A DNA stretch of 64,000 bases from a bacterium (GCA_965261085.1 OZ253442.1:1088001-1152000); one strand, 5' to 3'. Positions 17,775 to 49,207 are shown, numbered from the stretch's first letter. Notes: generated by a model from the sequence alone, not told the origin. Made by a program: numbers and translations.

Positions 17775-17983
17775 ATGGCATTCGGACTCAACCGCGCGGA
17801 ACTGATCGGACGTCTCGGCGCAGACGTCACCATCAACCACCTCACGAGCGGCGGACGCGTCGCCAACATCTCGATCGCAACCGACGAGGGCTACGTCGAC
17901 AAGCAGACAGGCGACCGGGTCGACAAGACCGAGTGGCACCGGGTCGTGACCTTCCAGCCCGGCCTGGTCGACATGTTCGAGAA
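17775..17983 (+). pseudogene. ssb: ssb 5' half, interrupted by the nested element
   Basis: LNRAELIGRLGAD...KTEWHRVV; joins in frame with 48970-49207 to give 148 aa. Confidence 0.93.
17971..17983 (+). repeat. attL core of the nested element
   Basis: ACATGTTCGAGAA, identical to 48957-48969. Confidence 0.9.
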
Positions 17984-18125
17984 ACATATTATACCATAAC
18001 GGACAATCGTGCGATTGTCTGCGCATGAAACGACTATATCATATATTTTTCAATAAATTATAATTGATTCCTGTCTTTGATCTAGCGTAATACGTACGTT
18101 TGTGCGCGCCCCGGTTTCTTTTTAT

Positions 18126-18145
18126 GTGTTGACATCAGTGTTGCT
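18126..18145 (+). promoter_or_regulatory. Candidate integrase arm-type sites (left)
   Basis: GTGTTGAC-atca-GTGTTGCT; similar tandem at 48861-48879. Confidence 0.5.
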
Positions 18146-18175
18146 AAATTTGATGCACGGTGCTATAGTCCGGGC

Positions 18176-19393
18176 ATGAACGAGAACACCGGAAAACGTA
18201 TTGCCAGGGTCAGGACGACGCTTACAAAACGCACCGTCGAGGCGCTAAAGCCTGATGAAAAGTCCTGGATCGCATGGGACGACAAACTGACGGGTTTCGG
18301 CGTTCGCGTCCAGCCCTCGGGCACGAAGTCGTTCATCGTCAACTACCGCGCAGGCTCAGGCGGCCGCAAGGCGCCCAACAAGCGGGTGGTGATCGGACGC
18401 TACGGCCGCATCGCCCCCGACCGGGCGCGGCGCTTGGCCCAGGACCTGCTCGGACGCGTCGCCCGGGGGGAGGACCCTGCCGGGCAGCGGGCCGATGCCC
18501 GCGGCGTCCCCAACCTGGCCCGTGCCTTCGAGGTCTACATGGCGGCGAATCCGAACCGCGCGGTCAATACCGTCAGGCTCTACGAACAGAACCTGCGGGT
18601 CAACCTCTCAGACTGGCTGAAGCGTCCGCTCGACGCCATCACCCGCCAGGACGTGGAGGACCGCTTCAATCTCATCACCACCAGGCACGGCTGGTCGGCG
18701 GCCAACCAGACGCTCTCGATGCTGCGTTCGATCTATCGCCGGCCCTGCGTCGACTATGAAGGATTGCGCAATCCGGTCGATCTGTGGCTGGCGGCCGGCG
18801 GGCGCTTCCACCAAAAAAGGAGGCGGCGGATATCGAGCCCGGCCGAGGTGTTGCCGCGCTGGCGGGCGGGCATCGAGGCCGTGGACCTCGAACCGGAGGT
18901 TCGCGACATCTTCCTGATCGGTATCTACACCGGCATGCGCCGGGGCGAGATCGTTACGCTGCGCCGGGAGCAAGTGGACATGGAGCGGCGCATCTTCAGG
19001 GTCGAAGAGACCAAGACCGGGGAGCCGCTGGAGCTTCCGATCACCCGGCAGCTCGCCACCATCTTCGAGCGGCGCCTTGCGGATGGCGAGGACCCGTGGG
19101 TGTTTCCCTCTCCCCGGAGCGGGGCCGGACACGTGGCGGACATTGCGCGGTTCTATGGTGAAATCACAGGGAAAGGCGGAACGCGGTTCTGGTTCCACGG
19201 ACTGCGCAACGCCTTCATCACGGTGGCGGAGCGCGAACTCATGCTGCCGCGTTCACTCACGAAGCGGCTGGTGAACCACGCCCGGCCCGGCGACGTAACC
19301 GAGGGCTACGCCGCCGACTGGAGCGTCGAGCAGCTACGCGAACCCGCGCAGCGCATCGCCAACCGCATCGACGAACTGATGAAGGGGACATGA
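18176..19393 (+). CDS. Tyrosine integrase of the nested element
   Basis: WDDKLTGFGVRV arm domain; GMRRGE, ETKTG, HGLR, VNH, TEGY catalytic set intact. Confidence 0.93.
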   Translation: MNENTGKRIARVRTTLTKRTVEALKPDEKSWIAWDDKLTGFGVRVQPSGTKSFIVNYRAGSGGRKAPNKRVVIGRYGRIAPDRARRLAQDLLGRVARGEDPAGQRADARGVPNLARAFEVYMAANPNRAVNTVRLYEQNLRVNLSDWLKRPLDAITRQDVEDRFNLITTRHGWSAANQTLSMLRSIYRRPCVDYEGLRNPVDLWLAAGGRFHQKRRRRISSPAEVLPRWRAGIEAVDLEPEVRDIFLIGIYTGMRRGEIVTLRREQVDMERRIFRVEETKTGEPLELPITRQLATIFERRLADGEDPWVFPSPRSGAGHVADIARFYGEITGKGGTRFWFHGLRNAFITVAERELMLPRSLTKRLVNHARPGDVTEGYAADWSVEQLREPAQRIANRIDELMKGT

Positions 19394-19579
19394 CGGTGGT
19401 CGAAGGTTCGCGCGCGGCAAAATAGCAATCCGCTACTTCTTCGCATAGCCAGTCGCGGGTCCTATGCGATGTTTTATTCAGCGGCCTCATTGGTATCTGG
19501 CTCGCTGTCGCAACCATGTTTTGTGACCCCGGGAGTTATACCAAATTCCATCTAGTGAACGAAATTTCTAATTTCCTAC

Positions 19580-19790
19580 GAGTTACTCTCAGCTCTTGTG
19601 TATGGGCTGAATTGAAGAAGGCGGCGCATTCCTGCTGAAATGTAGTTTTGACGATATTCATTTCAGAGAAAGAATACGCATCATCATACGGTAAAATACG
19701 AAAATTTGATTTTCGAATCCAGCTTTTAGGGTCAAATTCAGTGAACTTGTACACTAGGGCGCACAACGGCTGATTCAACAAGCCGTGGAA
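19580..19790 (+). mobile_element. Degenerate IS256-family left-end remnant
   Basis: CTTGTGTATGGGCTGAATTGAAGAAGGCGGCGCAT shared with 36831, 37801 and 60475. Confidence 0.75.
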
Positions 19791-20665
19791 TGGCGTCTGA
19801 AGTTAGCGAGGTGGAAATGATGAATACCAGGGGTAGTGTGCTCGGAATTGATGTGGGCTGGTCGAAAAATAAGAGGTCAAGCGCCGTTTGCCGCCTTTTT
19901 TGGGACGCCTGGGAAGTTAAGTGGCAAATCCAGAGGTTCCGTGCGATCGATCTCGACCGTGAGGATACGATTAGGCATGTCGTGGACAATCGCATGCTAC
20001 TTGCAGTCGCTATCGATGGTCCCCTTCGTCCTGAATTTCGTGAGGTAGATCGTTATCGTGGCGCCGAACGGCTTCTCAACCGGGGAGAGCTTCCGAAACG
20101 AGTTGGCCACCCGGGGCCGTCCAGTTCTTCGAACGGGAAGGACCTCAACGCTCAAGCGAATAAGTGCGCCACGTTCTTGAAAAAGCACTGTCGTATTCGT
20201 AAGGCAAAGCACAAGGTTCGGATAGACGAGTATGCAATAGTGGAGGCTTTCCCTACGACCTTTCTTGGAGTAATGCTCGATCATCCTGATTATTTAAAGC
20301 AACCCAAAAGCAAGAAAAAGTCAGATATCTTTTTTGCTGATTTGGTGAGTAACCGAAGTCTTGATCAGTTCCTTAAGAAGTTTCTAGGAAATCGGAAGTG
20401 GTCACAAAATATAGATGAAATCAATAACCACGACGATCGAGCGGCTTTCGTATGCGCGCTCACAGCGCTCTGCGTCTCGGCAGGAAACTTTACGGCGGTT
20501 GGCGACGAGAGGGACGGCTGGATCATCTTGCCGCCGCAATGGGCGTTCGCTGAGTGGGCATGGGAGGCGATTTCTGAGACAGCTAGGCAGACGGCGGAAT
20601 GTCATGAAGACGGAGAGTTAAAGGTGTTTTCAAAAAATCGGCTGAGTTCTATGTCGCACCGATAA
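19790..20665 (+). CDS. DUF429-like predicted RNase H-fold nuclease
   Basis: VLGIDVGW, VAIDGPL, IVEAFP, HDDRAAFVCAL. Confidence 0.75.
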   Translation: MASEVSEVEMMNTRGSVLGIDVGWSKNKRSSAVCRLFWDAWEVKWQIQRFRAIDLDREDTIRHVVDNRMLLAVAIDGPLRPEFREVDRYRGAERLLNRGELPKRVGHPGPSSSSNGKDLNAQANKCATFLKKHCRIRKAKHKVRIDEYAIVEAFPTTFLGVMLDHPDYLKQPKSKKKSDIFFADLVSNRSLDQFLKKFLGNRKWSQNIDEINNHDDRAAFVCALTALCVSAGNFTAVGDERDGWIILPPQWAFAEWAWEAISETARQTAECHEDGELKVFSKNRLSSMSHR

Positions 20666-21083
20666 GGTAAGAACTCATAGATGCGTTAATCGTAAGAACT
20701 CATCCCTCTTTCAAAAGTGCAAACTCATGTGACGCTTTCGATTGGCGGTTTTTCCGCTCCTTACCCGGTTTTGTGGCATTGATTTCCCCCCTACCGCAGA
20801 GTTTCTCCTGGAACCAGTTGAACATGTAGGTAGTGCCGACAGGTAGTTGGCAATGCCGGGAGCCGTCCTCTTTCGCGATGAAGAGTTTGAACGTCTTCTG
20901 CTCGGAGCTGATGACGTTACAAAGAAATTGCGCGTCTTCACAGGAAATTTGTTTACAGTTCTTCCCGAGCGTATCACCTCGATACTGGACAGAAACGAAT
21001 GGATATCGGAGTGATGTTACAAAAGCGTGTTCCAAAGAGTGAATACACAACCGAATGTTCCAATGTCTCCCGCGAAAAACTCC

Positions 21084-48199: not shown

Positions 48200-48485
48200 G
48201 TCTCCATTCGGTCCCAGGCCGCAGGGATAGTCCGGGCCCTTCACGTCGGCGGGGTCGAGGATGTAGCGCAGCTCGTTGCGAGTCAGACGATAGGCTCGTG
48301 CGTAGAACGCATCCAGGTCGGCGTGCAGAAGGGCGCGGCGCTCCTCGTCCTAGGTAAACGGCGGACCGTGATGGCTGCTCAGGTCACGGGCAAACGGCGC
48401 CAGCGCGTGGGAGGCGTATGTGAGTTCCAGCACCTTTGGAATGAGGAACGCGAGGCTGAGTTTGGTATAGAAGGCTGGGGTGACC
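48200..48485 (-). pseudogene. C-terminal remnant of a type IIG R-M / DISARM DrmMI-like methyltransferase (not in the ORF track)
   Basis: Minus strand reads [60 protein letters not shown]. Confidence 0.7.
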
Positions 48486-48548
48486 TTCCCCCTTCAAACG
48501 AGTCCCGTTTATCAATGAGTATTCCTGGATTTGTAGAAGGAGGCGGAG

Positions 48549-48760
48549 GATGGCAAGGAAGAGGTTTACAGCGGAACAGATCGTCATCAAGCTGCGAGAG
48601 GCGCCCGGGTTTTATCCGGCAGTGGAAGCTGGCAAGCAGTGGAACGCCCCGGCATCCGTCGCCTCCACCTTTTTATCGGCCGGACCGACTTTGACGGACA
48701 TCACGCCAACTGCAGGATAGAATCCTGACAACGGGACAAGTGGGAAATCGCATAAATGGA
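48549..48760 (+). mobile_element. IS3-family remnant
   Basis: GGAGG RBS then MARKRFTAEQIVIKLRE; internally deleted. Confidence 0.6.
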
Positions 48761-48860
48761 CATTCGGATTGCGGAGGTTGAACCCTTCAGCGAAACGGAA
48801 TATCCTTGCCGTTCTCACCCATGCGCAGGCAAGCGATGTCGTGTTTATGATCGATGCGTC

Positions 48861-48879
48861 GTGTTGCTATAGTGTTGAT
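48861..48879 (+). promoter_or_regulatory. Candidate integrase arm-type sites (right)
   Basis: GTGTTGCT-ata-GTGTTGAT. Confidence 0.5.
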
Positions 48880-48956
48880 AATCATTATATAGCAAATCTA
48901 TTTTATAAATAAATACATTATATTCAACAGGTTATATTGAATATAAAATAATGAAT

Positions 48957-48969
48957 ACATGTTCGAGAA
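48957..48969 (+). repeat. attR core of the nested element
   Basis: ACATGTTCGAGAA, identical to 17971-17983. Confidence 0.9.
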
Positions 48970-49207
48970 GCACGCGAAGAAGGGCCGTCTGGTCTACGTG
49001 GCGGGCAAGCTGCAGACCAGGCGCTGGAAGAAGGACGAGGAAAACTCCGAGCGGTTCTCCACCGAGATATTACTCGCCCCGGGCGGGCGCATTCAGTTCC
49101 TGGACAAGGTGAACGGGAACGGGAACGGCAACGGCAACGGCGCGCACCCCGAGACGGCGGCGGTGGCGGCGTCCGCAGGTGTAGCAGGGGAAGACATTCC
49201 ATTCTGA
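48959..49207 (+). pseudogene. ssb: ssb 3' half
   Basis: MFEKHAKKGRLVYVAGKLQTRRW...EDIPF continues 17775-17983. Confidence 0.93.

Follow-up and report, generated by a model that had tools for sequence, protein, structure and literature searches.

The DNA analyzed here is a stretch of 64,000 nucleotides from a bacterial genome (GCA_965261085.1, OZ253442.1:1088001-1152000), hereafter the window. It contains part of a conjugative element whose ssb gene, for a protein (SSB) that binds single-stranded DNA, is split in two. The two ssb parts are separated by an island of 30,973 bp (17984-48956; 1105984-1136956 in the coordinates of the genome, hereafter own-genome), which lies between two copies of a 13-bp direct repeat. 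A tyrosine integrase gene sits just inside the left junction, and a relaxase gene and a second, uninterrupted ssb lie further inside. The features are collected in Table 1.

In the whole window there are just two copies of the 13-mer ACATGTTCGAGAA, one per junction, even when one mismatch is permitted, and none of 100 shuffles of the window contained two matches to it. From its ATG at 17775, the left ssb reading frame runs through ..DMFEK across the repeat and then enters AT-rich DNA. The right part reads MFEKHAKKG.. from 48959 to its stop codon. The repeat has the same codon phase in both parts, so the gene is split in frame, and the 209 nt on the left and 238 nt on the right add up to 447 nt, or 148 codons plus a stop. 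The left piece (own-genome 1105787-1105987) matches positions 1-65 of the Pfam SSB profile and the right piece positions 61-99. The G+C content of the island (0.45-0.72) is lower and more uneven than that of its flanks (~0.67-0.71).

The same chromosome also carries the site in its empty form. Own-genome 3762728-3763308 matches window positions 17406-17986 at 98.6%, and 3763293-3764516 matches 48957-50189 at 86.7%, the two matches overlapping by the core. Because they run on without a break across the core, we conclude that a sister ICE (integrative and conjugative element) on this chromosome has its ssb uninterrupted. A second perfect, unoccupied core is found at own-genome 3737052 on the minus strand. 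In all, six ssb loci of this genome belong to mobile elements, and the chromosome has an ssb of its own elsewhere (2983855-2984163).

The integrase gene starts 192 bp inside the left junction and encodes both Pfam domains of its family. In an alignment of 23 sequences, R255, K280, H341, R344 and Y378 show no variation, and H368 is conserved at 90% or more; we take these columns to be the catalytic R-K-H-R-(H/W)-Y residues. The best integrase paralog in the own genome is 33% identical. Both AT-rich ends of the island carry a pair of GTGTTG(A/C) motifs, starting at 18126 and 18138 on the left and at 48861 and 48872 on the right. As single 7-mers these motifs are not above chance across the window (16 seen versus 10.2 expected). 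The pair upstream of int is nevertheless kept across most of an 80-locus integrase family, whatever the target (see below). An initial annotation, made from the sequence alone, had proposed the in-frame 148-aa join, the repeat at both junctions, an intact integrase about 190 bp inside the left attachment site (attL), the tandem motifs in both ends and an intact close paralog of ssb within the insert, and each of these held up.

Two further features of the ends bear on how the integrase might work. A promoter-like site (TTGCTA-17 nt-TATAGT, 18141-18169, with an upstream TG) stops 6 nt before the integrase ATG, so the int mRNA may be leaderless. The arm repeat GTGTTGC overlaps the -35 hexamer of this site, which suggests autoregulation of int. 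In the predicted attP, the surroundings of the core would form an imperfect inverted repeat (AATACATGT ... ACATATT) flanking TCGAGAA, which suggests a 7-bp overlap.

The interrupted element encodes, besides the genes in Table 1, a ParB-like protein within the window. Beyond the window it continues with a relaxase (own-genome 1157467-1160493), a type IV coupling protein (T4CP; 1160328-1162490), a VirB4-like ATPase (AAA_10; 1184539-1187160) and TrbI (1187534-1189657). Together with its integrases, these genes identify the interrupted element as an ICE. Its length is at least ~96 kb, insert included.

Parts of the island resemble this host. Its relaxase, presumably MOBF-like, is 68.9% identical to that of the host ICE over 969 aa (tblastn). 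A minus-strand module running from 43353 to 37871 encodes o416, SSB, DUF4326, YAcAr/SLOG and o128, and the segment 38709-41744 has 79-83% nucleotide identity (blastn) to the DNA flanking ssb in the host backbone, without the host Toprim gene; shorter megablast segments reach 88%. The coupling-protein and mating-pore genes are missing: tblastn with the host ICE proteins found no T4CP, VirB4-like ATPase or TrbI in the insert. All own-genome matches to PF12846, PF03743 and PF02534 fall outside the insert, PF03135 has 0 matches in the own genome, and no oriT was located in the insert. A possible T4CP remnant at 33180-33578 (29% over 140 aa without a low-complexity filter) disappeared with default filtering and was rejected.

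A TrwC relaxase and an integrase without a coupling protein or type IV secretion genes make the island an IME (integrative mobilizable element) nested in an ICE. As is expected of an IME, it has its own recombinase with att sites and its own relaxase, and has no mating-pore genes. We assign a probability of about 0.88 to this reading, in which the IME sits in the ssb of the ICE and descends from the same ICE family as its host.

Table 1. Features of the window, in window coordinates, with the basis of each assignment.
Feature	Position	Strand	Basis
Two tandem tyrosine integrase genes, host ICE	3943-6328 (3943-5118, 5108-6328)	+	Pfam
Strawberry-notch-like helicase, 1478 aa, methyltransferase-like N part	12224-16660	+	AAA_34 E 5e-106, Helicase_C_4 E 6e-91
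ssb 5' part of host ICE	17775-17983	+	codons 1-69 plus 2 nt, end ..GLVDMFEK; translation, tblastn
Left 13-bp repeat copy (attL core)	17971-17983	+	same core at junctions in four other genomes
P' arm, AT-rich	17984-18175	+	arm-type repeats GTGTTGA 18126-18132, GTGTTGC 18138-18144
Tyrosine integrase, 405 aa	18176-19393	+	Arm-DNA-bind_3 E 8.9e-17, Phage_integrase E 2.7e-12, both past curated cut-offs
PDC-S44-like candidate defence protein, cargo	19790-20665	+	PADLOC E 2.5e-10
Ankyrin-repeat protein, cargo	21084-22016	-	Pfam Ank E 4.5e-35
Integrase remnant, arm-binding domain only	22417-23322	+	Arm-DNA-bind_3 E 1e-9; catalytic domain missing
Second integrase remnant, arm-binding domain only	25025-25462	+	Pfam E 2e-9
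IS1595-family transposase	25744-26631	+	Pfam DDE_Tnp_IS1595 E 1e-37
TrwC-type relaxase-helicase, 1090 aa	33479-36751	+	Pfam TrwC E 1.4e-81, AAA_30 E 2e-44
o128 backbone open reading frame, 128 aa	37871-38257	-	in all four other complete elements, 38-84% identity
YAcAr/SLOG-domain backbone protein	39002-39955	-	Pfam YAcAr E 8e-22; kept in 4/4 other elements
DUF4326 backbone protein	39977-40348	-	Pfam E 4.6e-25
Intact own ssb, 145 aa	40966-41403	-	inverted relative to split host ssb; Pfam SSB E 1e-23
o416 backbone open reading frame, 416 aa	42103-43353	-	relatives upstream of ssb in other elements
SIR2-like candidate defence protein, cargo	46562-47716	-	Pfam SIR2_2 E 6e-8; PADLOC SIR2 E 7e-8
P arm, AT-rich end	48787-48956	+	arm-type repeats GTGTTGC 48861-48867, GTGTTGA 48872-48878
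Right 13-bp repeat copy (attR core)	48957-48969	+	exact repeat search
ssb 3' part of host ICE	48970-49207	+	through stop codon
Host ICE backbone 3' of ssb	49245-52383	+	Toprim/DUF7146 49245-50267, DUF4326 51028-51402, YAcAr 51424-52383; Pfam

To place the integrase among its relatives, we collected 1369 proteins at E <= 1e-30 among 8000 scored candidates; the top 120 are 69-92% identical to it. A scan of one genome per species gave 428 relatives, of which the best 80 loci (L numbers; genomes carry G numbers) were used. Sites were called by tblastn of both ssb halves and by inspection of the 260 bp upstream of each integrase. The initial annotation expected homologous integrases to flank an ssb split at the DMFEK codons, and 8 of the 9 loci whose integrases are 86% identical or more agree with this: they show an ssb N-half cut at these codons, ~180 bp before the integrase (L009-L014, L016 and L017, the last with ~900 bp of extra inserted DNA). 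The same cut was found at L018 (80%) and L086 (68%), which brings the count to 10 of the 80 loci. When 78 integrases were placed in a maximum-likelihood tree, that of the window and those of the 8 loci above 86% with this cut grouped in one clade (SH-aLRT 91), which sits inside a starred clade of 10 that includes L015. The host backbones upstream of the split ssb vary (Sno helicase-o112; Sno-o112-Toprim in one; o416), which indicates several independent integrations rather than one inherited composite. The absence of pore genes, the related host backbone and the conserved site agree with the earlier proposal that the island is a parasite or satellite of a sister ICE family with ssb as its attB. 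With its closest relatives at the very same codons, the island has the look of one member of a parasite family that preys on conjugative elements.

Four of these elements could be delimited from core to core in other genomes, with lengths of 43,027, 31,935, 33,159 and 31,604 bp. Each has its attL and attR in ssb, with the same core at both ends apart from variants: one has TTTGAGAA at both ends, and in another the attL alone has T for C at core position 2, so that strand exchange would have taken place to the right of that base. The arm-repeat pairs stand at the same distances as in the window element, with GTGTTGC-NATA-GTGTTGA ~85 bp inside attR (kept in 5 of 5 elements) and GTGTTGA-N5-GTGTTGC ~155 bp inside attL. 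All four contain an intact, inverted internal ssb within an o416-ssb-(Toprim or o123h)-DUF4326-YAcAr-o128 module, and three of the four encode a TrwC relaxase. By tblastn, none of the four has a VirB4-like ATPase or TrbI, and among the five elements only the one in G004 has a T4CP, 82% identical to that of the window's host ICE. A tblastx comparison of the host type IV secretion region with the elements gave 3313 short, GC-rich and uninformative matches, and was replaced by tblastn of defined frames. In each of the genomes that carry L009, L010, L011, L013 or L017, the ssb C-half finds 6-12 matches.

The right junction also recurs in metagenomes. A scan with the P-arm motif returned seven stretches, three of which (L136, L138 and L139) cross the core into the ssb C-half. 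In L133 and L134 the P arm lies beside non-ssb DNA, and L137 shows another kind of junction; the match in L135 appears to be accidental. Separately, ssb C-halves follow AT-rich DNA at G001:C2:921146 (L106) and G002:593699 (L117), with the differing joins ..AAAAAATTGAGAA and ..GCATGTTTGAGAA. Both add to the occupied sites in ssb and may belong to variant elements.

Public sequencing runs matching the stretch number 23, from 13 studies, of which 5 contain most of it; all are available as Logan contigs. For four runs of two samples, contigs aligned to 17000-20000 begin at 17957-17958 and continue into the insert, so the attL join is present in these data; no joints were seen. They carry 26-27 ssb letters on the left, fewer than the 31-letter threshold for bridging. 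One loose contig end, at 17986, carries the sequence of the uninterrupted ssb in the sister ICE, and another, at 17983, has 10 letters only, too few to assign. Read depth of flank versus insert sums over many ssb copies in these runs and is hence not interpretable. With six mobile-element ssb copies and several close ICEs in one genome, and so few flank letters in the left-junction contigs, it is conceivable that the split ssb arose by misassembly, or by homologous recombination or inversion between two related ICEs. We consider such an origin highly improbable, since the same junction, with its core, AT-rich arms, repeat pairs and integrase 190 bp in, is found in four other genomes, its structure recurs in the three metagenome contigs, and the junction DNA is AT-rich and element-specific rather than ssb-homologous.

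Several observations weigh against a mobile IME that is specific for this site. The integrase at L015 (86%) lies in AT-rich, non-ssb DNA with 9 of 13 core matches, a location that looks like a secondary site. The refuting outcome named at the outset, homologous integrases at unrelated sites, is not what the close relatives show, L015 being the exception; members of the wider family do occupy other places (see below). In the L011 element, a decayed relative, the attL core is mutated, and a search over 54 kb did not reveal an attR. Neither an attP circle nor a restored attB of the host ICE could be assigned in the contigs of the four runs from two samples, and no attP form occurs among the seven metagenome stretches. 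The insert itself shows wear, with two integrase remnants, an IS1595 transposase and three fragments from the 5' end of a group II intron (19580-19790, 36830-36998 and 37800-37855; 71-89% identical to 60474-60687), and a profile search found no HTH_17 or Phage_AlpA excisionase-like gene in it.

Given these signs of decay or accretion, the insert may no longer move. It could have integrated site-specifically and now be a fixed, decaying passenger that travels only with its host ICE. This is possible, although we think it doubtful: the integrase keeps its full length and every conserved catalytic position, the two 13-bp cores do not differ, and the relaxase is intact, as is the arm-repeat pair at each end. 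Furthermore, close relatives occupy different host backbones, which argues that the clade moved recently.

If the island is a nested IME, its cycle can be outlined from these features. The N-terminal domain of the integrase would bind the paired GTGTTG(A/C) repeats in both arms to assemble the intasome, and this binding would probably also autoregulate int. In the next step the integrase would exchange strands between the core of attP and the same 11-13 bp in an ssb of the ICE family, where they encode D-M-F-E-K. Integration would split ssb and leave the 13-bp direct repeat, and precise excision would restore ssb in frame, while the island's own copy could supply SSB in trans. The island retains the TrwC relaxase, along with a module for DNA processing (o416, ssb, DUF4326, YAcAr and o128), and has lost the coupling protein and the mating pore. 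As these are absent, it would have to borrow those of the host ICE or ride passively inside it.

The role of the island's own ssb deserves separate consideration. It is 94% identical to the N half of the host ssb and 87% to the C half, and its core position reads ATATGTTCGAGCG, with 3 differences from the 13-bp core. The copy could be an adaptation that replaces the SSB function broken in the host ICE, its recoded core shielding it from targeting. All delimited elements have an intact internal ssb: that of the window, the four whole elements, two more in G003 and the one on metagenome contig L136. In 7 of 7 two-ended elements of the genome set, the last five core positions of the internal ssb read GAGCG, GAAAA or GAACG, while occupied sites read GAGAA. 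However, such core variants also occur in 12 of 30 intact ssb copies that are assigned to no delimited element, and these counts are not independent because the ssb copies are related. The GAAAA variant is itself occupied at the L136/L138 junction, where the internal ssb of the element has the same 11 bases, ATGTTCGAAAA, and the internal ssb of the L011 element has a perfect core. In addition, ssb is part of a backbone module shared with ICEs (o416, ssb, DUF4326 and YAcAr), so simple inheritance explains its presence. We therefore regard the adaptive explanation as unlikely; an inherited backbone gene of an ICE-derived element accounts for the island ssb equally well as complementation does.

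Beyond the close clade, the best 80 loci show a variety of targets. Three positions in ssb are hit, by 10, 3 and 1 loci: besides the DMFEK codons, ssb is cut near residues 34-46 at L074, L081 and L087, and an ssb in opposite orientation is cut near its N terminus at L039. The YAcAr/SLOG gene is hit at two positions (L068; L069 and L070; near 5800), within the ssb-Toprim-DUF4326-YAcAr backbone. The L030-L033 clade lies in the catalytic half of another integrase gene, and for L030 and L032 (5380-5850) Pfam confirms a truncated integrase (profile positions 46-168 of 172). L053 (4608-5831) lies in a coupling-protein gene (T4SS-DNA_transf positions 7-286 of 468, E 4e-56). Chromosomal targets include CoA-transferase, enoyl-CoA hydratase and LuxR-type regulator genes. 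Sixteen of the 80 loci adjoin what we provisionally label a tRNA-like 3' fragment, from a T-arm-like motif found by regular expression and sequence reading; aragorn, applied to 77 flanks over 700 bp upstream, did not detect a complete tRNA in any.

Target labels cluster on the integrase tree, with 11 changes versus a mean of 31.5 after shuffling, and 0 of 200 shuffles were as low. The clades at other sites are 65-80% identical to the window integrase; for those relatives (65-75%) that abut the truncated coupling-protein, integrase, YAcAr/SLOG and ssb genes, the calls refer to the integrase-side junction only. Record titles of relatives with at least 65% identity name Alpha- and Gammaproteobacteria, Acidobacteriota, Nitrospinota, Binatia and Thermodesulfobacteriota metagenome-assembled genomes (MAGs), with the caveat that several loci are MAG bins in which single-contig phylum labels are uncertain. 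A conserved integrase family that repeatedly switched target, often to backbone genes of ICEs, would make these islands a guild of hyperparasites that settle in ICEs, apparently within the microbiomes of sponges and coral reefs. We give this broader picture an even chance of being correct. If true, it offers a natural series for how tyrosine recombinases re-aim.

The remaining gene content of the island is varied. The PDC-S44-like and SIR2-like candidate anti-phage genes lie near its ends, where the other four elements have different cargo. Ankyrin-repeat cargo recurs in the G001 and G002 elements, and L133 and L134 hold long arrays of such repeats beside the P arm. The o416 frame has no Pfam or NCBIfam match. 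No PADLOC, NCBIfam or Pfam match was found for the open reading frames at 23556-24413, 26638-27177, 27205-27678, 27753-28316, 29566-31338, 37047-37745 and 48092-48694. The frame at 32788-33204, upstream of the relaxase gene and considered as an excisionase, matches no Pfam or NCBIfam model, does not resemble the HTH_17 region of the host ICE and appears to be non-coding.

The genome that hosts these elements is rich in related ones. Besides the pair in the window, tandem tyrosine integrase pairs are found at own-genome 217377-219700, 2394196-2396536, 3742670-3744988 and 3811548-3813736, and such pairs mark the ends of at least 5 ICE-like elements in the 4.27-Mb genome. The window pair is 97% identical to that at 2393979-2396590. 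Region 3715134-3813736 contains two ICE-like units, apparently nested or head-to-head. In one, the integrases (3742670) and ssb (3763097) are both on the plus strand; in the second, both the integrases (3811548) and ssb (3737248) are on the minus strand. The region at 3715134-3722669, with relaxase and T4CP genes, duplicates 1155977-1163512, just past the end of the window. Within the window, positions 53955-60381 are taken up by a metabolic cluster that encodes TctA, TctC, an HMGL-like enzyme and a peptidase of the creatinase/prolidase type. It has the ICE backbone on one side and a group II intron on the other, falls within the span from the integrases to the transfer genes, and is probably ICE cargo. 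The intron (60475-62964) matches Rfam group-II-D1D4-6 at 61126-61349 (156 bits) and has a reverse transcriptase/maturase frame at 61447-62964. Further copies lie at own-genome 1441956-1442570 and 3775171-3775782.

Both partners can be compared with known systems. ICEs with TrwC/MOBF relaxases carry ssb, Toprim and DUF2493-like genes in their backbone, and we take the host element to be one of them. The island shares with such ICEs the ssb-DUF4326-YAcAr module and the related relaxase; unlike them, it is without a coupling protein, VirB4-like ATPase and TrbI, and its integrase is unrelated to that of its host. P4-type tyrosine integrases (DUF4102/Arm-DNA-bind_3) of genomic islands insert beside tRNA genes. 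The island has the same domain architecture, arm repeats in both att arms and int beside one junction, but its target lies in the middle of a protein-coding gene of another mobile element and not at a tRNA 3' end.

In lifestyle, the closest parallel is with IMEs of streptococci. According to the text of Coluzzi et al. 2017 (PMC5357655), these insert site-specifically in traG, snf2 and maff2 of Tn5252-superfamily ICEs, mostly by serine integrases, and others in the oriT of Tn916/ICESt3-type ICEs use tyrosine integrases. The authors proposed there that the ICE gene is repaired when the IME excises, and that the ICE either takes the IME along or mobilizes it. The streptococcal elements in that text and the island are alike in that a small mobilizable element is inserted site-specifically in a conserved gene of a conjugative element and disrupts it. 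The differences are several. The streptococcal IMEs that target ICE genes have serine integrases (Ser_1 to Ser_4 in that article), whereas the island has a P4-type tyrosine integrase with arm sites. They are found in Firmicutes, whereas the hosts here are MAGs labelled mostly bacterium or Alphaproteobacteria. The article text contains 'ssb' 0 times, whereas here ssb is the target and the element has its own copy. A 2026 paper (PMC12942858) reports that Tn1806 nests site-specifically in ICESa2603-family ICEs to give a composite element, again an integrative element inside an ICE, in different bacteria and element families. The main texts searched describe no ssb-targeting element or integrase; IME targets are also listed in the supplementary tables of PMC5357655, which may bear on this point.

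The resemblance to the streptococcal IMEs is thus one of lifestyle, not of family. The lifestyle was already known; what is new lies in the family of the integrase, in the gene that is hit and the paralog of it that the island carries, and in the range of hosts. Islands nested in conjugative elements shape which sets of genes travel together, and have so far been documented mainly in streptococci, mostly with serine integrases. The same lifestyle is seen here with a tyrosine integrase family and an ssb target, in uncultured bacteria with 6-12 ICE-type ssb per assembly. An integrase clade devoted to one 13-bp site, with sister clades on other sites in ICE genes, provides a comparative series for changes in core specificity. 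The island is also a concrete case in which to ask whether a nested island repays the host function that it breaks and protects its own copy of ssb.

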